DNA from: Podospora anserina
Lineage: Eukaryota
Reading direction: 5' to 3'
Length of the DNA stretch: 64,000 bases
NCBI GenBank assembly: GCA_017654855.1
Contig: CM030333.1
Span: forward strand, 5,084,001-5,148,000
Numbering within the stretch: position 1 is the first letter of the stretch; the number at the start of each line of letters is the position of its first letter. A program made the position numbers and the translations under genes. The notes below the pieces were generated by a model that saw nothing but the letters and a program-made list of their open reading frames with translations, ran no database searches and was not told the DNA's origin. Shown here piece after piece: positions 25,214 to 40,982 of this stretch.

Positions 25214-26915
25214 ATGGTGTCCCAGACCCAGTCCCAGTGTTATACCCCTTCCTCTTCGTCGTCTTCATCGTCGTCTTCGTCGTCCTCGGGTTCTACGACA
25301 TCCGACACTCACACCACACTCATCGGCGGCGGCGGACTCGTCCCAGGACTCGGTGGACTCGGCCTACCTCCACGACTCGGCAGCCGATCGAGTTACAACA
25401 ACACTAGCCGACCGTATCCAGCTGTATATTATTCATCTCCCACTAGTTTGCCGTCTCTGGACTCTGATAGACACCACCACCGTCACCCCGGGCACGGCTA
25501 CCAGCTTCCTTCACACCCTCTTCACGACGGCCACTCGCGTGGACACCTGAGTATGTCTGATCAAGGAGGGCACGGAGGTATGGATGGGTCAGACTCCACA
25601 CCACAAAGAAAAAGGATCGCTGTTGCTGTACGTCCATACCTTACCTATTCTTTTCATGAGTCTACCCACCAACCAGCTCGGTTACCTTATGCTGACACTG
25701 AATTCCTACCTGGCTTAGTGTGGAAGGTGTAGAAAGCGAAAGATCAGATGCAGTGGTGACCCGGGGCAAGGGCAGCCATGCTCGAACTGCAAGAATGCCA
25801 ATGCCGAGCCGTGTCAATTTCTAAGGGTGAGCTTCACTACTTTTGTCATCACTTTCAGGTTGTCTAACAAGCGCCAGGTTCAATCAAGAGAAGCCCCTTT
25901 CATCCGAAGTGAGCCGGTTGGCGATAGCCCTTTTGGCTACAATGTTGGTGATGCCAGACTATACCACGCTTCCCGCGCGCCCACGTATCATGCCTCTCCC
26001 AGTCCGCACGCAACAGCCTACGCTTCCGACCTTTTATCCACCACTGGGCATCATATGGGACATGGCAGCACTACCGACATTACAGGTATCTCATCGTACA
26101 GAGGCAGCACTCATGGCGGCGGCTACTCATACGTCCCGGTCAAACCAGCGTATTACACGGCCGCATACAGCTCCTCGCCACACGGCCTAACGTACGGGGT
26201 CCACTCTGATGTGGACAACTTTGGGGGTTATGGTTTGCCGGTCCCCACCGGAGAAGCCCATCACGATGCCCCCAGCGGCATCCCGGTCATGTCCATGCCT
26301 GGGGCCCCAGCTTGGCCATCTAGCAGGAGCATGAAATCCCCGAGCGGGTACGGCAGCATGTATCTGGATCCAGAAGTAACCGCATCCCCAACCACCTACA
26401 CAACCCCCCCACCATCGGCCTACTCAGCAGTCCGGGGCCACTCAGCCGCCGGGGACGGGCCGAATTTCTCCTTCACAAACATGTCAGCTTCGTTGCCGTC
26501 GTCTCAGTCGGATCGTGTGCTTCCTGTTCCTTCTTCCACCGCCGCCACCACCACCACGACCAGTCACCGCTCCTCCACCTACCCACCTCTCTCAGGGGCC
26601 AACAAACCCCCAACGGCCACAGACTCGAGCTACGACAGCTACGGCTCCTCTCGCACCGAGTCCAGCGGCCCAGAAAGTATCTTTAGCGACTCGGAACGCG
26701 CTGCAGCGTTCTCGAACAGCCAGGGGCCAGCAGCCTTTGACATGAGCCCGTACGGCACCAGCTCCGGGTCGACCGACGCTTCTGGCCGAAGGGACTCTGC
26801 ATACGCCGCGGCGGGGGCTGGACACGAGACTGGCGGTGGGCATGACGGGCCGTCGCTGCCTTCCCTGTCGTCTGCGTATGAGAGGCATCATGCTGCTGTT
26901 GCCACCCGGCACTAG
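25214..26915 (+). CDS. Zn(II)2Cys6 binuclear cluster transcription factor (~519 aa)
   Basis: Exons 25214..25627, 25719..25826, 25878..26915; RKRIAVA-CGRCRKRKIRCSGDPGQGQPCSNCKNANAEPC; rest is S/T/G/P/Y low complexity. Start could alternatively be the ATG at ~25553. Confidence 0.9.
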
Positions 26916-29469: not shown

Positions 29470-30966
29470 GATGATGATACGGATATTGGAGAGGCTGAGA
29501 TGTGTTGGGAAAACAACACGGCTGAAGATGGAGATGGAGATTCGATCAATGCGTAGCGTGCTGCATTCGAAGGGGGTGCTGGTGCAAACGGCGGGACCAT
29601 TGGAGGAGTTCTCGGACGTGCTATGTGTGTGTCGTTATTTGATGGCGAAGGACGGGATGGAGGAGAGCAACAGAAAGAGTCGGCGGCGGTGGTGTATAAC
29701 AGTTGTATATGGCGTGCGTGTGATTCAGGAATGAAATTGCGGTCGGCGAGACGCTGCTCCGCGCGAGAGTGCCTTATCTCTGGGTGGCTTCTCGTGCCCC
29801 TGGTCCCCTGCTCGGACGCTGTGCCCTGGCTCTCGGAAGAGCTGAAAAAGGTGGAAATGGGAGGGCGCTTCCTCTTATGACGATGACGACTGATAGAAAA
29901 CAAGTGTCGACAAGGTAAGGTATCAGATTATTTGACAGGTCCTGTTAAGTGGTTGAGGCGTGCGGCTCTGTTCGTGGCGGGCGTGCGTGTCGGGGTGCTG
30001 CTGGGTGGTGCCCTGAGATGTGGGCAAGCTCCGTTATTTGAGTTTGTGGTGATCGTCGAGCTTGTCGTCACTACTGCTTCCGACACAAAGGAAGATCCCT
30101 GCGTCAACTGTCTGTGGAACGGGCCTAGACACAGTGTGCTGTGGGTTGTGTGGGCGGGGTGGAGCTGTCAGAGCTCCCCTCTCACCTCACCCCTTTCCGG
30201 CCCCGCAGGTAAAATGCCTGCTGTTTTAATTTGGAGACTGAGATGACGGTACGACTTGCAAAAGATTACGAACATAAAAAAAAGAGAATGAATGGCAAAC
30301 AGATCCTGCCTGCTCACGGCATTTGCAATATCATATCAGAAAACCCAACATCGGGCAGCTGCAGAAGAATGAAAGGTGGAGAAGATAAGGGCCACCCGCA
30401 GGCGAGACAATTAAGGTAGAGATATCTGAAGACAGCATCCGCTGGGACGGACAGTGCGAGTGTGTTGTCGACCCCTCTATTGTGTCGTGTCAGTCCGTCC
30501 CATCGAGGGCTTCTTTTTATTTTATTTCACCGCTCCGGGCCATTGTTCCTTGCTTCGCGCCGATAGACTTTTTGGTCTGCAGCTCAGCCCCATCACCAAT
30601 GAGCCAAGCTGATTCGAAAACATGGTCTTGTGCCAAGCTTGCAAAGGAGCCCAAAGCTTCAAAACAGACCGCTGGCTAGGCCTCGAATTGCATCTGCAGT
30701 GGGGTAACGAATACTACCGTGGTACATTCTCAAAGTACCCGTGGCCCGATCCTCATCGCGCAACTTACGTACAACCCTCGGAAGCTAACGCCACATGATA
30801 TCGGCATCTGCAACGAAACATCCCGACACTGCGGGTGAGACAGCAACAGAAGACAGTCAGTGCCTGTTGATCATTACCATAATGCAGCCATACGTGCCAT
30901 ACCTATTATACATGATAGTATCTACACTACATGTGTATCCCAATATCCCATTATCCCATCATCTCA

Positions 30967-33900
30967 TCACTTGTGAAAGAGGCCATCTGCTATCCGCTTC
31001 CTTGCCCTGGCCAAACCCTGAGTGCTGGCGCTATCCAGCTGCTGCGAGCTCGCAATTCTCTGCGGAATCGACGCCTTCTCCCGCAGAAGGCCGAGAGAAG
31101 AAGCCGGTACACTCATACCTCGCTTGCTCAAGCCAACCCGCCTTGCTGCTGACGTCGGCCTCCTCTTCTTGACCCAGCCGTCACCATCGGGCCAGTCAGA
31201 GTCCTGCGAATCCTTATATGTCTCGTCAATGTCGTCCTCTGCGTAGTTTTCTTCCAACGCAGGCTCGGGACTGCTAAGTAGTGATATCACCTGTGACCCC
31301 TTCGGGACTTGAAACTGAGCCGAAGTGCGCGCGCTTCTACGTCGGCAGGTCTCGGTATGGGACGACACAGGTTCCATCTTGATCTTTGCCATGGAGCTTT
31401 GCTTGAGGTGCTGTGACTTCCTAGGCGACGGCTTCTCAATGGGCTTCACCATGAGCCTCCGTGCAAGTGTGGATGGGCCTCTGCGGACGTTGGGAATATC
31501 CGAGTCTGAGCTCGAATCCCCATCATCAGAATCTGATTTGCCAGAGTCGTTAGAGTCTTCAGACTCGTCCTCCATGTCATCCAGCCGCCGCATGGCTTCC
31601 TCATATTCAGCATCTGCCGTTGTCTTTGACATGCGCGACTTCCCTGGTGGAATGACGTCAACCTGGACCGGGTCCCGGGCCGGCACACCCGAACTGTTAT
31701 TGGTCGAAGGCTGAGTGCAGAGCTCGCTCACCGATGGCAGGGATTCGTCTGATGACGAAGACTCGGAAACTGCCCATGCAAGGCGAGAAGGACGAGGCGT
31801 TGGAACATTGTCCTCCTCTTCTGCCTGCTCATCCTCTGATTGCTCATCCTCCTCATGGCTTTCGACCTCGCTGGGTTCATCTTCCATGGCATAACGAGGC
31901 GAGCTGCGGAGTGCATCTCGGTTGGCAGAGTCATCCTCGAGTGCATTAAGCGAAGAGTCGGCCAGATCGATGCTCAAGTCCGGGTCAACTTGCCTCTCGC
32001 TCTGGATGCTGCCAATCTCCGAGGGCGGTAGGGCTAGTTTGGGGGACTCAACCCGATGCTCAGACGGCGGCAGCGAGATGGCATCCGAGAACCCATTAAA
32101 AGGCTCCAGCAAAATCGGCCGCGAATCAACGCCGTTGGTTGTACCGCGTGAAGCACGGCGAGATCCCAAGTCGCTTTGAGGCTGCGAGGATTCAAATGGT
32201 CTCGGCAACGCATCATGCGACATACCCGTCAGCTGTCGTGAGGGCGAGTGGCTACTGCGGTTCGAGAGTGCGTCATTGGCAATGGATGGATCAACCTCCT
32301 TGCGGAAGCCAGCTTCGCTGATCAGCTGACTGATTTTGTGTGGCCTGTCTTCCGTCATGGATATATCTTCGACAGACATCACCTGAGCGGCCTGGGCCTC
32401 CTGATCTTCACTGGAGCCATTGGGGTCACAAGATTCGGGGATGACGCTTTCCTCAAGAGTCTGAGTGTTGATATCCATCTGTGATGTCTCGTCAGTAGAT
32501 TGTTCCGGTGCTTCATGCCCGAGGGTTGCCGATGTTTGAGCGCTCGTGGTCTTTTCGAGGTTGTTGGCGGTATGGGACGGTGATGGCTCCTCCACCAAAG
32601 GCGTACCTGGAACTATTTGAGAGGGATACTGCAGGACGCGGGGCTCCATCATTTCAGATAAATCCAGGGTCCGGTAACCCTCCTCCTCCTCCTCCTCATC
32701 TTCCTCATCCATGCCCGGAAGTTCAAACTTGTCGTAGACACGCTTGCCCTCGTCATCGTAAACCTTTTCGTTTCGGTCCAAGTACTGATCTCTTTTGGCA
32801 AGCCGGACCCGAAGAACACCATGATCCTCCAGATTGATAATGATTCCCGTCAGGCGTGACACTTGGGGCGCCCAACTCGTCGCCTTGGACATCAAAAGTT
32901 GCTGCCAAGTAAGAATCATACCAGGCGCAGCACTTCCAGGCTGCAACAAGGGGAGAGTCGAAGGGTCTGCGGGAAGCGGTGGAAGGTCATCCTCTTCCTC
33001 CTCCTCACGAACCTCTGATACACTGCGCTCGGGTTGTTCCTGCGGCTCGTCATCGTAGTTCAGGGTAGTCTCGCCATATTCCGTGCTTGCCTTGTAGTAA
33101 TATGACCCTCTGTCATCATAGCTATAGTCCCCAATGCCACCCACGTCTGACCTTCTCTTTTTCGTTTTCGACGTCTCTTCATCTTGAAGCTGATACTCGT
33201 CTTGACTACGCTGCTTCCTCTTCTTGCGGCCACCGTGTTGGTATTTCTGCTGGGGATCCCAACGTTGGACAAACGGGAATGGAGGCTCACTGAGCTCCAC
33301 GCCCTCCTGGCAGCACTCGACAGCCCTATAATTGATCTTGGCTCGCCAGGCATCTGGATCCTCGTCCGCATCGCAGGCAGCGTCCTTATGGGGTGCCACA
33401 GGTGTTTCAGACAGCCGAGATGTTGCTTGAGCCGCTGGAGCCGCATCGTGAGCCGAAGCTGGCTGGCTGGGGGCATCGCCTTGAAACTCCTCCACAATCA
33501 TTCCAGTCAAAGCTCCAATGCGCTCCAGCATCTGTGCCTTCTTCGCAGCGATAGTCTCAGTTACACTGGCAAGCTCGGTAGAGTCTGCCTCGGTCATGCC
33601 AGTACTCGGAGCCGTAGGAGCTAGCGCCGCTAATGCCTCAGCGCGAGCAGCAGCCTTTTTTGCCTGCGCCAGAGCCCTTCGTCGAGTGTTTCTTTTCCGA
33701 GTGGATGGCTTGCCTTCCCCAGGGCGAGGTGGACCCGCATCTTCACTTTGAACGGCCGGTGCTTCGGTGACTTGCAGGGTCCTAATGGGACTGGGCGCGA
33801 TCTTTTTGGGTTCTGGGACAGCACGCTCTTGGTCAACAGAAGTGTCATCACCGCTTGAGGATTCGCCATCGCTGGAGGAATCATCATCGCTGGAGGAATC

Positions 33901-35655
33901 GATGTCGCTCGAGGAATCTTCACCGCTGGAAGCCGCCTCTTGGCTGGAACTTTCACAAGCCGAGCTGTCGTCGTCACTTGATTCACCGTTCGAATCATCG
34001 ATTGAAGAGCCGTCAGAGTCCTCGTCGCTGGAGTCAGCTTCATCGGAATCACTTTTACCGCTTGAATCCTGGTCAGAATCAGGTGCACTGCTGTTTTGAT
34101 CATCATCAGACTTGGGATCACCGGCAAGATCCACACCCTCATCACTACCGTCACTGGCGCCATCGCTGTCGGTATCATCGTGGTCCTCATTGTCGCTCTC
34201 ACTATTGCTGCTGCCGTCGTCGTCATCGTCACTGTCGCTATGGCCATCACTGTCGTCGCCCCCAGATGGCTTGGTGTCGGCAGTGGTTTGGGCCTCCTCG
34301 TTATTCTCATCCTCGTCACTGCTCAGGTCGTCGTCGCCATCCGGGTTCGAGTCAGTGAGATCATGTTCTGAGGAGCCTGGTACAGGTGGGCAGACTTTCG
34401 AGGACGCCACTTCGGGTCCACTGTCACTTTCGCTGTCGCTAGTGCCTGATTCTTCAGAAGACGAGTGATGGCTAGCTTCATTGGCATCCTCTTCCAGGGC
34501 ATCATTCTGGCCTTCATCATCATCATCCTCGAACTTGGTGTGCACAGGAAGGTTGACAGGTTCTCCTTTCTTGCGCATCTCCTCGACCATGTATCTAGAA
34601 GCAGTGCCATTAAGGATGGAACCGCTCGGGAATCCATGCTGATCGTAATGCTTGATCACGGACGCAACCGATTCAGCGTCGCTGTCGTCTTCCTCATTAC
34701 TGTCCCTTGGTCGCTTGGTACCACGCTTTCGACCGTCGATGGGAGCCTCGACTTCCTTCGCCTTCCTTCGTGCATTGACGCCGCGCTCCTCACCGTATGT
34801 TATGCTGTTCCCGCCTTTCTCGGGTTCCATATCATTCTCCAGGTCCCTTAGTTCAGCCTCGAGATCGGACTCATCATCTTGAACATCTTCCTCGAGGTCT
34901 GCATCCTCGTCTGAATCTGAGTCCAACCCTTGTTCTTCCATGTCATCCTCATCGATGGGCTCCATATCCGACTCGTCCTCGTTCACATTCTGACCACCAA
35001 AATCGTTGTCTTCTACATCTTCGTCCGAGTCGGCGTCATATGGCGCACTGAACCTGACACTTCCGGCCCTGTGGGCTTTCTTCCGTCCCCGTTCGCCAGA
35101 CTCGGTAATCATAAGCTGTTGAGCATCGTCGTCTTCTTCCTCGCCATGTGGATGGTAGGTAAGTCGTGGGCGTTTCAAGGGCGGTATATCCACTGCAGGT
35201 CTGCTGTAGGCAGCTCTTAGGCGAGGGCGGCCGAAAGGGATACCGTCGAGAAGATGACGGCCGTCATTGGTGATCTGATCGCGGCCGCTCAAGCGACGCT
35301 TCCTTCGATCATTTGTAACAAGTGGGCGAATGCTAAGAAAAAGTGGCACATGTTAGTTTGGATCGCTTCGTCGAGGACAAAGGCACGAGACGGAACAAAC
35401 GTACTAAATCTCTTCATCATCTTTCAGTACATCGGCCACTTGCTGGAAGTGGAAGAAGTCAAAGGCGGTGCCCGTGTCCTTCTGTCTCAACTCGATGGTG
35501 TAGTCCTCCAAACCCCATTCGTTGCTCTCTAGGGGGATAATCTCGTTGACTTGTTCCAGTAAGTTTGCAATGGTCGGGTCATTCTCCGTCTTGCAGCTGA
35601 AGACGACTCGTACGTCAGGGAGGGCATGGCGGCGGACCACCAGTCGCAAACGCAT
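30967..35655 (-). CDS. Large acidic nuclear protein, coilin-like architecture (1538 aa)
   Basis: Exon 35655..35405, intron 35404..35333, exon 35332..30967. N-terminal globular domain MRLRLVVRR...VLKDDEEIYIRPL, D/E/S tracts, basic NLS-like motifs, Tudor-like segment at ~32630..32975. Confidence 0.85.
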
Positions 35656-36179
35656 GTTTCAGTTGAGTTGACTGGTATTGAACAGGTGGGATCTGGATGG
35701 TTGATGATGCGTAGAAAAGAAAATTCCGGGAAAAACTTCGTCGCGAGAAAAATAGACTGGAGCACGCAGAGAAGAACAGAAAGTAAAAATGAGCGACGGA
35801 TTGACGGGATTGACGGATTGACGCGTGCGAAACTTTGGGACCAAAGCTGTCGCCAGGCTGTCGTGGGTGAACTGTGGAAAGTTGCCGCGTCTTGCAGCTT
35901 GCATCTTATCTTATCGATAGTGGGGTGGGTTTTTGCGCGGACTGCGATAACCCTGGTGCTAAGAACCATCAACTACGACATGGGCATCGTAACCCTGAGG
36001 GTGGCAGACCGAGTACCCCTGAGGGTGTCGAGCTTCAACATTCACGATGCCAATGCCAAAAGTCTACCCATTTTCTGCGGTCGCTAATCCAGGTATCTAC
36101 TTTGCGAATATACAGATATACACGTGCTTCTTCTCCGAGCTTGCCACAATCCAATCGTCAACCATTTCCTCGAGTAGGA

Positions 36180-37476
36180 TTACCTCGGCAACGCGCCTGG
36201 GTCTAACAGATGCCCCATCTTTTCGATCTGCGGGTGCCTCGCGGTTAGCATTTGCCATGGCGCAGCGTAGAAGCACAGAATATCTCACCTTTGTCTTCAG
36301 ATATCCTTCCACCTCGGGCGCCCTGAAGCCGCCCTTGCCCTTCCACGACAGAGGCACCATGGCCACACGCTCCTTCACCACCACCTCCCTGTTTGGCCCC
36401 TCCACGGCGCGAATCTTGTCTGGGTTGTTGGTCAAGAGACGCACTTCTTTCTGACCGAGGTCAAGCAGCATGGCTGTTGCAAGGCCGTAGCTCCGCGCAT
36501 CAGCGGGATGTCTCAAGAGCAGGTTTGCCTCGACTGTGTCCGACCCCAAATCCTGCAGATTGTAAGCCTTGAGCTTCTCACCCAGCCCGATGCCGCGACC
36601 CTCCTGCCGCAGATAGATGATGATGCCTCCTGCTTTGTTTGAAGGCAGAGACATGAGCCGCGCAGCCTCGTCGAGCTGCTCGCCACAGTCACAGCGCGCA
36701 GACCAAACGGTTTCGCCTGTGTAACACTCGCTGTGTATCCTGACCAGAGGTGGTTGGCTCTTGTCAGCCTCTTCTGGTTCTTGTCTCTCTGTTGCCGAGC
36801 CATCAGCCTTTTCCAGGCTTGTCGTTCTCCCTGGGTACAGTCTGCCCGTGTAGGCGCCCCGCACAAGGCGATCCATCTCGGTCTCGCCCTCGCGTACGGC
36901 ATCGAGTGACTTGCTGCGGATCGTGTTTCCAAACACGATGGCCAAATGTTCCTTGTTGTCCACATTGTTGGTGTAGAGGTGGAGAAACATCTCGGCGCCT
37001 GTGGTGGTCGGGATACGCGCGCGGACGATGCATTCTACCTGAGGGAGTTGCTCGAGGAGTCGTGGGTGTTTGGATCCACAACCGCCGGAGGGAACCGAAC
37101 TGTCGACTGGGACGCCGCGCGGTTCTGAGAGCAATAGGCTGGACGGAGTAGCGGTCCCTGGGGTGGCGGGAGGTGTGAAGGCTGGCGACAGCAGCGAACT
37201 GGGCGGCGGCGCATTTGATGGTGTCCCTGCGCCATCATTGCGGTCGCCGTTGCTGTCATTATCATTACTGCTGCTGTCTCCGTCCTTGGGCGTGGGCGGT
37301 GATGTGGCAGAAGTGCCGACTGCGGGGTCGGAAGAAAAGGAGAAGTCGGGGTGCGACACATCGGCATCACCTTGCGACGAATGCTGGGCGTCTGTTGGGG
37401 GAGAGTAGAAGGAGGGCAACTGGCTGGTCGTCCTCTCGGCGTGGTGTTGCCATTCGTCTGGCTGCTGGCCGGGCAT
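36180..37476 (-). CDS. RIB1: GTP cyclohydrolase II (riboflavin biosynthesis)
   Basis: [67 protein letters not shown]; last intron ~36288..36229 gives a C-terminus [18 protein letters not shown]. Start codon uncertain. Confidence 0.95.
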
Positions 37477-38687
37477 TGCGACGGGACTGGAATGGGATGG
37501 AGGGGCTGGCACGCGCGTGTGGCTGTCGGTGGCCGGTGACGGGTGGTGCAAGGCAACGCAAGGCAACACAAGGCTATCCGCAATCACAGGCTCGGGCCGT
37601 CGGTTCCAGGGCACGTCTGGGTCGGTCTGTAGGTAGGGTAAAGAAGGTTGCAAGGGGGTCAATGGCGGTCAATGGCGCAATGAATGGAGAGAATCAATCA
37701 GTCAACACAAGACTCGAGCCCTTTTTGCTAGTTTCAAAAGATGACAGCTTCAACCGGGCCGGCGGGCGATTCCAAAGCGATTCACGGCCATTGGGGAAGC
37801 ATTAGTCATGTGCTGCCCGCATCGCCTCGGTGCTTTGGAGTTCGGCAGGCGGCGAGACAACTTCCCAATACTTTGCGGGGTTCGGCCCCACTCCTCTCCA
37901 TCTCTCTTCAAACTTGACAGTTGACACTGCCACTGGATTTTTGGCGACAGCGACAATTCATTGTTGTCTATTTCGTACCTGGGTAACCTGGATATGGTGA
38001 GCTTGCAGAAAGACCCCTTTCAAAATACAATATCACCGATTATTAAACATTGCATTTGTACAGATGGCATATTCATCATCAACTTACAACCGAGCATCTC
38101 CGATGGGTGATTGATTGATAAGCTTTGTCTTATCACGATCCTGTTCATCATCTTCCATCCAGTCACACAAGTCAACTCAGGCCAACAGGATGCAGGAACA
38201 CATCTTGGCTTCCCCGGCTGGGGCCAACTGTTCTCCAAAATTAGCATGCTAAAGGCTGATGCAAAACGACCATTTCGATGCCAGCACTCACACGCAGCGG
38301 AGGCCGACATGTATTCTTCCGAGATGTCGTCAGTTCGGTTCAAGTGCGGCTCTTCAGTGCCCAGACAAGGCACTATATTGCGCCAGGCACCACGAGGTAG
38401 CGCGTGGCATGTCGAGAGCTCGAGAAAGGTCCAGCGAGGCCCTCATCAACCCTCTCGAGCATCTCGTCCGGGCTGGGCTCCCGATCCAATATATCTGCGT
38501 GTCCTTGGAAAGAGGTTCCCTTGACCGCTGGGAAATTGGCCAATGCAGCTTGAGGTCTTGTCGCTACCGTGAGCCCACATGGGCAACACCGTCTCCCATC
38601 ACGCAATGTTTCTGTGTTTCCTCTTTGGGAAGTGGAGGAAACGGATCTTCGGGAGGGCAACCGGGAGCCGCACCCCAGGCCAAGACC

Positions 38688-38888
38688 TTAGCCTACCAGC
38701 GCGATGTGTCGTTCCGAGTGGGCCATCGCCCACTCTGTCCATGGTGCCGGCACGACGTCTCCTTCGACGCCGGGACACCCGTCGACATCCTGGCCGTTGC
38801 AACTTGGCTAACGGAGGCAGTGGGCTGTCATGGCGAACCGATTCGGAAGGGAAACCTGGGGGAGCGAGCCAGGTGAACTGGTATAAGA
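38688..38888 (+). promoter_or_regulatory. GH6 promoter: GGCTAA (XlnR/Xlr1-type) sites at 38688 (reverse) and 38806, CTGGGG CreA-type site near 38856, TATA-like element near 38882
   Basis: Short consensus matches upstream of a cellulase; chance matches are possible. Confidence 0.4.
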
Positions 38889-38997
38889 GGCATCCGACGA
38901 CGACCTCGAGATGGGAGAGTCTTTCTTGCTTCTTCAGCCAGCCTCTCCAGCTCTGTCTCCCACTCCATCCAGCCTTCTTCTTGGACCTACCATCACC

Positions 38998-40229
38998 ATG
39001 CGTGCCGACGTCTTGATTGCCGCTCTGGCCACCGGCGCCCTCGTGGCTGCCGTCCCTACCTCCCCCAAGAAGCCCACCCCTCCCAAGGGCGACGTCTCCA
39101 ACCCCTTCGTTGGCAAGACCCAGTTCGTCAACCCCGAGTGGTCCAACAAGCTCACTCAGACCTACAAGAGCTTCCTCAAGAAGGGCGATGTCAAGAACGC
39201 TTTCCGCACCCTTCAGGCCCAGAAGGTCAGCACCTTCGTCTGGGTCTCCCGTCTCTCTGAGCTCTCCCGAATCGACGAGGCCATCGCCACCGCCCGCCGT
39301 GTCCAGAAGACGACCGGCAAGAAGCAGATCGTCGGTCTCGTCCTTTACAACCTCCCCGACAGAGATTGCTCCGCTGGCGAGTCCGCCGGTGAGCTCCTGA
39401 GCGGCGAGAACGGCTTTGAGCGCTACAAGGAGGAGTTCGTCAAGCCCTACGCCCAAAAGGTCGCCGCCGCCAAGGACCTCGAGTTCGCCATTGTCCTCGA
39501 GCCCGATTCGCTCGGAAACCTGGTCACCAACCTCAACATCCCCCTCTGCGCCGGTGCCGTTGACACCTACCGTGATGGCATCGCCCATGCCATCACCCAG
39601 CTCCAGCAGGACCACGTCCACCTCTACATTGACGCTGCCCACGGTGGCTGGCTCGGGTGGAACGACAACCTTCCCCTCGCTGCCGATGAGTTCGCCGAGG
39701 TCTTGAAGAGAGCCGACGAGGCTTCCGGCAAGAAGAACAAGATTCGTGGTTTCGCCACCAACGTCTCCAACTACAACCCCCTTCACGCCGTCGTCCGTGA
39801 GAACTACACCGAGTGGAGCAACAGCTGGGATGAGAGCCACTATGCCTCCAGCCTGGCCCCCCATCTCGAGGAGCGCGGCCTTCCTGCTCACTTCATTGTT
39901 GACCAGGGCCGTGTCGCCAACCCCGGTGCCCGCAAGGAGTGGTATGTTTCCCCTGGCATTTCTTTCGATGGACCTCAAGCTAACATTTTACGTGTAATAG
40001 GGGTGAGTGGTGCAACGTTGCCCCCTCCGGATTCGGACCCGCTCCCTCCACCAACACCAACAACACCGTCGTTGACGCCATTGTCTGGATCAAGCCCGGC
40101 GGTGAGTCTGATGGCGAGTGCGGCTACTTCAACGCTCCCCGCGCCGGCCATTGGCACGACGAGTTTGCCCAGCAGCTCGTCCAGAACGCCCATCCTTCCG
40201 TTTATGAGAACTGGTGGAAGTTCTGGTAA
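38998..40229 (+). CDS. Secreted glycoside hydrolase family 6 cellulase, no CBM
   Basis: Signal peptide; YNLPDRDCSA, LEPDSLGN, YIDAAHGGWLGW, ATNVSNYN, FIVDQGR; intron 39942..40000; then WCNV...WIKPGGESDG. Confidence 0.95.
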
Positions 40230-40982
40230 ATACAAAAAGTATTTATCAACTAGGTGGATGGAGCAGGGTGTTTTAGAATTCTTGTACATACTTAATTATT
40301 TGCCTTGTCTATACAAACCATGGTTAATCACAAGACCTTTTGTCAATTACTTCGGCTCCCTTTTGCTTTTTGTTTCATGGTGATCTAGTCTCTGGACATC
40401 CGAAGCGTGGTTATGGCTTGCTTTCAGCGTCTTGGCAGGGGTAGGTTCCCAAGCAAAGACATTGGATGTTTTCTCCATTCTGATTGTAGTTGTTGAAATG
40501 TCCTCCTCTTCAGCCTCATGCCCAATGCTTTACCCGCAATTGGTATAGTGTGGATTTCATGACACTGTTGACATACCCAGAACAGAAACAGTTCAAGTTT
40601 CTGTCCTTGCGGTCAACAACTCCAGTCCTAATTCCCGGGGAATTACGCAGACCTCAAACTTCGAAACGGACTGGAAACTTTGATGGCGTTTTAAGGTTGA
40701 GCGCCTTGTGGAATTCTCTCGCTGGTGGCTGCAGTCAGGGCGTCATCCTCTCCAGCTTCGGAACCGGTGGGCAAGCCCCCCTATATACACAAACCCGCCA
40801 GCCTTGCGCTGTGCTCCTTGTTTTCCCCCCCTTTGCGCTCGCCAACCATTCAGTCGCACCCATGTCTCTCATTTAAACCACTTTGTCCTGGGTGACCCGA
40901 CACTCTTTTGTCAAATCCAAAACACAGCGGCCACCACCATTCTGCATCGTTCTTTGTCTGCAGACCACACGAACATAAGGCG

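Follow-up and report, generated by a model that had tools for sequence, protein, structure and literature searches.

To our knowledge, coilin was long held to be missing from fungi. In 2022, Mug174 of the fission yeast Schizosaccharomyces pombe was put forward as a structural homologue of coilin (PMC9666668; here and below, papers are cited for what the accessible parts of their text state). According to a report from 2024, Mug174 forms nuclear foci, binds the cap trimethylase Tgs1 via its N-terminal segment, associates with the U2 and U5 small nuclear RNAs (snRNAs), and is needed for snRNA cap trimethylation; the comparisons in that text cover Saccharomyces cerevisiae and Caenorhabditis, not filamentous fungi (PMC11347179). 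A second S. pombe protein, Eas1 (SPAC18G6.13), shares the Mug174 N-terminus, and a Tgs1–Eas1–Mug174 assembly was described in 2026 (PMC13473130). Moreover, Aspergillus nidulans was stated in 2025 to lack canonical Cajal bodies (PMC11964246), and a Talaromyces marneffei protein entered as "Coilin (A0A093VAG7)" is a proteomic marker in a multi-omics paper from 2026 (PMC13689312). Here, we discuss a gene in a 64,000-nucleotide stretch of Podospora anserina DNA (contig CM030333.1, positions 5,084,001 to 5,148,000; hereafter the window, with positions counted from its first letter). The gene lies on the minus strand, from an ATG at 35655 to a stop codon at 30967–30969, and its product is probably the coilin-family protein of Pezizomycotina, a protein of the Mug174 type that most likely serves as a nuclear scaffold.

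A preliminary description of the window, made from the sequence alone, had proposed a coilin orthologue at this position. The coilin reading is favored by the two folded domains and by the order of the parts along the protein, which is that of coilin and of S. pombe Mug174: a ubiquitin-like N-terminus, followed by an acidic disordered region with basic clusters and a Tudor-like domain. The sequence features quoted at the time are all present on the minus strand, i.e., the exon beginning with MRLRLVV (35655..35405), the basic motif KPSTRKRNTRRR at 33711, LPLLQPG at 32955, and MMEPRVL at 32652.

The Tudor-like and N-terminal domains

The Tudor-like β-barrel domain (residues about 864–985; 32629..32994, minus strand, as for all features of this gene) encloses the segment 32630..32975 in which a coilin-like region had been suspected. 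Its AlphaFold2 (AF2) model, with a predicted local distance difference test (pLDDT) score of 84.4, is a small β-barrel with an acidic loop. The family was represented by an alignment of the window segment and 49 diverse family segments (n = 50), each of which was scanned singly against Pfam. Of the 50, 25 align with PF23086 (Tudor_Coilin; "Coilin, C-terminal Tudor domain") over nearly the whole profile, with a best E value of 1.3e-10, and the next-best Pfam family, SH3_15, matches eight (best E value 0.0025). The likeness to the coilin Tudor motif, which the preliminary description had pointed out, is thereby borne out by a curated profile in half of the family members sampled. When whole proteins are scanned, three score above the PF23086 gathering cut-off of 27 bits (P0201, 34.3 bits; P0212 from Botrytis deweyae and P0359 from B. 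elliptica, 31.7 bits each), with matches that start at profile position 5 or 6 and end at position 103 or 104 of 105. Another three fall just below the cut-off (P0173, 26.6 bits; P0197, 25.1 bits; P0235, 24.4 bits).

Both Botrytis proteins also bear the N-terminal domain of the Podospora protein, Pfam DUF7357 (domain of unknown function; PF24054), with E values of about 7e-59, and therefore a single protein combines the two domains. The corresponding region of the window aligns to residues 817–1056 of P0212, which hold its PF23086 domain, at an E value of 8.5e-44; homology within the family is therefore beyond doubt. In a language-model atlas, the Tudor part lies nearest to a cluster from Ascomycota (score 0.84), and PF23086 is carried by 31% of the proteins in this cluster. 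Closer to Podospora, two of ten Sordariomycete segments give full-length PF23086 matches below threshold (E values 0.0066 and 0.015). Whole-protein scans of the Podospora, Neurospora, Coniochaeta, and Colletotrichum orthologues yield no PF23086 match, which is why the link to coilin has gone unannotated in Sordariomycetes. The modest scores suggest that the PF23086 profile was not built from these fungal sequences. Where clusters were looked up, the proteins with names came from Botrytis, Mollisia, and Cytospora, and the label coilin was absent. By sequence, it is the curated profile, matched by close relatives, that ties the Tudor domain to coilin.

The N-terminal domain is encoded by the first exon and the beginning of the second. 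The exon 1 product matches DUF7357 with an E value of 9.7e-30 (103.7 bits, profile positions 1–78 of 131), and the second part of the domain (residues about 84–140; 35164..35332) continues the match with an E value of 1.4e-17 (64.3 bits, positions 80–130); the gathering score of this Pfam family is 27 bits. For the spliced-equivalent residues 1–141 of the orthologue P0003, the score is 190.3 bits, and DUF7357 is found in all 30 of the diverse N-terminal domains aligned. The AF2 model (pLDDT 82.2) starts with a β-grasp core that reaches from residue 1 to about residue 88; a conserved extension comes after it. When it was compared with the PDB by Foldseek, eight matches at E ≤ 0.001 were obtained, namely ubiquitin variants, Hub1, and the FERM domains of talin and radixin; as modeled, the N-terminal domain has a ubiquitin-like fold. 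In the alignment of the N-terminal family, position 2 is invariably arginine and lies inside the strand RLRL. This strand presumably resembles the N-terminal motif of coilin. The N-terminus of coilin is itself predicted to be ubiquitin-like, and its residues R8 and D79 mediate self-association (PMC9556525). With the DUF7357 clusters set aside, the language-model search for neighbors of the N-terminal domain places chordate and plant Coilin_N clusters at ranks 2 and 3 (0.78 and 0.76), scores that count as leads only by the search's own calibration. What ties the N-terminal domain to coilin is thus its place in the protein, its fold, and a weak lead rather than a sequence test.

In the N-terminal alignment, this domain is the best-conserved part of the family. 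A search with the N-terminal profile (74–254 amino acids, E ≤ 10) returned 481 matches; all of the best 120 carry PF24054, and most of these 120 are fragments of about 87–90 amino acids whose matches are confined to the first part of DUF7357. Among ten fragments scanned, three (P0244, P0246, and P0250) have weak matches to DUF7539 inside DUF7357 (E values 3.8e-4, 0.063, and 9.3e-4, respectively), which may make DUF7539 a sister family that comprises the N-terminal domains of other fungi. In addition, two database entries consist of DUF7357 only (P0245 from Morchella snyderi, 145 amino acids, and P0241 from Escovopsis weberi, 128 amino acids); either their gene models may be truncated or the two may be paralogues of the Eas1 kind, restricted to the N-terminal domain.

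Between the two domains lies an acidic, serine-rich, low-complexity region (residues 143–743; 33355..35157) that consists of 17% D, 12% E, and 15% S and has a net charge of −123. Basic clusters occur within it at residues 164, 271, 285, and 629, and, on the sequence, the region corresponds to the low-complexity middle part of coilin, with basic clusters that are predicted to act in nuclear localization. The motif KPSTRKRNTRRR (33676..33711, starting at 33711) is part of a conserved island at residues 624–640 and is a candidate nuclear localization signal.

Comparison with coilin and Mug174

The likeness to human and vertebrate coilin lies in the ubiquitin-like fold at the N-terminus (on the coilin side predicted; PMC9556525), in a middle region that is charged, contains basic clusters, and shows little conservation, and in a Tudor-type domain that falls into the Pfam family specific to coilin, which is reached here via family members. 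As to Mug174, the common ground is an ascomycete protein whose N- and C-terminal domains are described as weakly coilin-like and as enclosing a disordered region (PMC11347179, PMC9666668). Mug174 would also be the model for the function to be expected, with Tgs1 bound via the N-terminus, snRNA cap trimethylation, and nuclear foci. The closest relatives are the DUF7357 proteins of Pezizomycotina, such as P0003 (Podospora pseudoanserina QC764_213820) and P0073 (Neurospora crassa GE21DRAFT_8495), which are direct orthologues and none of which differs in kind; in the source databases they are labeled as hypothetical, as DUF7357 or, in the case of the Botrytis proteins P0212 and P0359, as "CUE domain-containing protein" (UniRef). 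The Talaromyces protein A0A093VAG7 is a Pezizomycotina protein already called coilin in a database; it may be a member of the family. In the literature, the term "DUF7357" was not found by our search, nor was a published analysis of this family; judged by titles and the first lines of abstracts, the listed papers that pair coilin with Neurospora or Aspergillus include no work on a fungal coilin orthologue.

Several observations weigh against the assignment to the coilin family. PF23086 gives no match at E ≤ 10 with the window's own Tudor segment and protein or with the closest orthologue, P0003, and the sequence tie of the window to Tudor_Coilin is accordingly transitive, running via family members only. 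The AF2 model of the Tudor-like domain found no PDB entry at E ≤ 0.001 in Foldseek, and no coilin entry; its best matches are LSm domains (2vxf, E value 0.064), SH3 domains, ribosomal SH3-like barrels, and one Agenet protein. The model therefore fits a Tudor/SH3-like fold and is, by structure, a generic and unspecific SH3-like barrel. Sequence searches of PDB chains with the window's Tudor segment and with the profiles of the Tudor and N-terminal families returned no coilin chain, and the sole match of the Tudor-family profile is a light-harvesting protein (E value 2.2). At the other end of the protein, Coilin_N (PF15862) matches none of the 30 diverse N-terminal domains, none of ten additional ones, and neither exon product. 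The fungal domain also continues past the ubiquitin-like core for about 50 conserved residues, with invariant alignment columns, and this extension sets it apart from the vertebrate protein. Other differences are a highly conserved 43-residue island that precedes the Tudor-like domain and, in the long form of 1538 amino acids, the position of this domain, which is not C-terminal; 546 residues follow. As the preliminary description had noted, there is no RG box: the 1538 residues contain seven dispersed RG dipeptides and one RGR, without a repeat. The RG box, which carries dimethylarginine and is bound by SMN, is known as a trait of animal coilins and not of all coilins.

Part of this evidence could also be accommodated by a fungus-specific, acidic nuclear protein that shares with coilin only an ancient Tudor/SH3-like module and acts in another pathway (nucleolar, chromatin, or ubiquitin-linked), rather than as a counterpart of coilin and Mug174. 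In favor of this alternative, the N-terminal domain has a Pfam family of its own and is never matched by Coilin_N, and the weak DUF7539 matches in three of ten N-terminal fragments (E values 3.8e-4 to 0.063) point the same way, as do the island upstream of the Tudor-like domain and two C-terminal motifs, all without a Pfam match. The length of the protein is two to three times that of human coilin, which has 576 amino acids. The profile that recognizes the Tudor-like domain is, however, the coilin-specific one, not that of a general Tudor, SMN, or Agenet domain, and the competing SH3_15 is confined to eight of 50 segments; moreover, the domains follow one another as in coilin, and the non-self language-model neighbors of the N-terminal domain are Coilin_N clusters. 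The UniRef label of the Botrytis orthologues, which would also speak for this alternative, is offset by scans in which the Pfam CUE family has no match in P0212, P0359, or P0073. We regard this alternative as unlikely.

It is far less plausible that the protein is the counterpart of Eas1 instead of Mug174. Eas1 is homologous to, and in predicted structure superimposable with, the Mug174 N-terminus (PMC13473130), and it is the N-terminal domain that is best conserved in the family; in the same text, however, the likeness of Eas1 to Mug174 is limited to the amino terminus, and the protein discussed here also has a Tudor_Coilin-type domain. Finally, a resemblance by chance or composition in a protein unrelated to coilin would agree with the silent window segment, the generic barrels, and an acidic loop that could inflate scores, but it is highly improbable given that PF23086 matches in many members span positions 4–6 to 103–104 of 105, where a low-complexity artefact would be local, and reach E values of 1.3e-10 with three whole proteins over the curated cut-off.

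If the gene indeed encodes a coilin-family protein, its parts suggest a division of labor by analogy with the described systems. The N-terminal domain would mediate self-association and recruit partners, which are Tgs1 in fission yeast and Nopp140 in mammals. The charged disordered region would drive condensate formation and nuclear import, and the Tudor-like domain would bind Sm-core small nuclear ribonucleoproteins. As a consequence, snRNA maturation would be concentrated in Cajal-body-like foci. We infer such a scaffold function from human coilin and Mug174. In addition, the fungal protein has features of its own, i.e., the conserved island before the Tudor-like domain, a long tail with conserved motifs, and, possibly, a switch between isoforms.

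Gene structure, conserved islands, and a candidate second intron

The spliced coding sequence comprises 1538 codons and the stop codon. Coding exon 1 (35405..35655) encodes residues 1–83 and two bases of codon 84, with the translation MRLRLVV...DDEEI, and corresponds to the first part of the N-terminal domain. Intron 1 (35333..35404) is 72 nucleotides long and has a GTACGT donor, a CTAAC branch site, and a TAG acceptor. In the long form, coding exon 2 (30967..35332) includes the stop codon at 30967–30969. Removal of intron 1 yields the sequence ...EEIYIRPL..., a junction identical in the annotated orthologue P0003, a protein of 1537 amino acids that is 96% identical across the queried part and has the same C-terminus. 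Contigs of three sequencing runs from three studies (X1, X2, and X4), which span the gene from about 30850–30900 to past 35830, join 35332 to 35405 and skip exactly 72 nucleotides bounded by GT and AG on the minus strand. The runs are not recorded as RNA and were taken to be RNA by guess; their contigs nonetheless hold the spliced junction, and this shows that transcription and splicing take place in agreement with the gene model given here.

Residues 655–905 of exon 2 are matched at E ≤ 0.001 by 906 proteins of 799–2545 amino acids. In a library of 1.84 billion proteins clustered at 50% identity, 693 clusters match this region at the same threshold, 278 of them at E ≤ 1e-30. On account of these matches, the gene is not a chance open reading frame. 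The protein searches listed the best 120 matches, places that closer relatives occupy, and the named relatives among the matches listed are filamentous ascomycetes.

An alignment of 52 full-length relatives resolves the protein into conserved islands separated by low-complexity sequence. Besides the N-terminal domain (residues 1–142), these include a short motif at residues 310–327 and the island with the basic motif discussed above. The highest conservation in the protein, with a mean identity of 0.77, is found in the 43-residue island WRAKINY...FPFVQRWDPQQ (residues 744–786; 33226..33354) upstream of the Tudor-like domain; it has no match in Pfam, where DUF7357 is the sole match of the whole protein. 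The C-terminal tail of the long form (residues 993–1538; 30970..32607) contains 17% S and has a net charge of −40; its 546 residues agree with the estimate of about 550 extra residues made in the preliminary description. Two motifs are conserved within it, at residues 1324–1335 (31579–31614) and 1430–1454 (31222–31296).

Individual relatives depart from this layout. P0231 has a BRCT domain in the middle region (residues 623–698, E value 7.5e-10), which may reflect a fusion of gene models or a lineage-specific insertion. In the Neurospora protein P0073, a CUE-like stretch can be discerned by eye at residues about 255–300, upstream of the island that reads IKHYDQHGFP; it is apparently missing from the Podospora protein.

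A candidate alternative intron of 128 nucleotides (32479..32606; GTACGC...CTGAC...CAG) begins eight codons past the Tudor-like domain. In runs X2 and X10, from two studies, 57-nucleotide contigs join 32478 to 32607, with flanks of only 27 and 30 letters, which fall below the 31-letter rule, and 185-nucleotide contigs of the same runs retain the 128 nucleotides (depth of joined versus retained contigs, 22.1 versus 41.8 in X2 and 6.3 versus 10.6 in X10). Excision would shift the reading frame to a stop codon eight codons on and generate a product of 1000 amino acids in which the Tudor-like domain is C-terminal, as in canonical coilin. Given this weak junction evidence, the spliced form is possible. 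Fewer than 60 residues follow the Tudor-like domain in 18 of the 237 family proteins compared, and some of these 18 may be truncated gene models; most of the 237 run 400–600 residues further. The conservation of the tail motifs argues that the long form is real as well.

Taken together, these data allow a joint reading, which we put forward tentatively and consider possible rather than probable: removal or retention of the 128-nucleotide intron would give Pezizomycotina two coilin isoforms, one of 1000 amino acids with the canonical layout and one of 1538 amino acids whose tail motifs and 43-residue island bind partners unknown in animals, and the ratio of the two would tune Cajal-body-like condensates.

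Three open reading frames were identified in the neighborhood of the gene. They match a GTP cyclohydrolase II (36100–37668, minus strand; E value 9.5e-49), a protein of glycoside hydrolase family 6 (38887–40380, plus strand; 2.5e-87), and a Zn2Cys6 transcription factor (25719–26912, plus strand; 3e-6). No functional context for a coilin-like gene is evident from these three neighbors.

Meaning for filamentous ascomycetes

The finding extends the recent discovery of Mug174 and introduces no new principle. In part it is already present in databases, where Tudor_Coilin is assigned to Leotiomycete orthologues and a Talaromyces entry is named Coilin. Together, the data suggest that Coilin_N has its fungal counterpart in Pfam DUF7357. 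If the two-isoform reading were true, filamentous fungi, which had been regarded as lacking Cajal-body-like condensates, would have tunable ones. A relative of coilin probably occurs in filamentous ascomycetes, mostly under the database label of a domain of unknown function, and Neurospora, Podospora, Botrytis, and similar models gain a concrete gene whose product has both a ubiquitin-like N-terminus and a Tudor domain of the coilin type.

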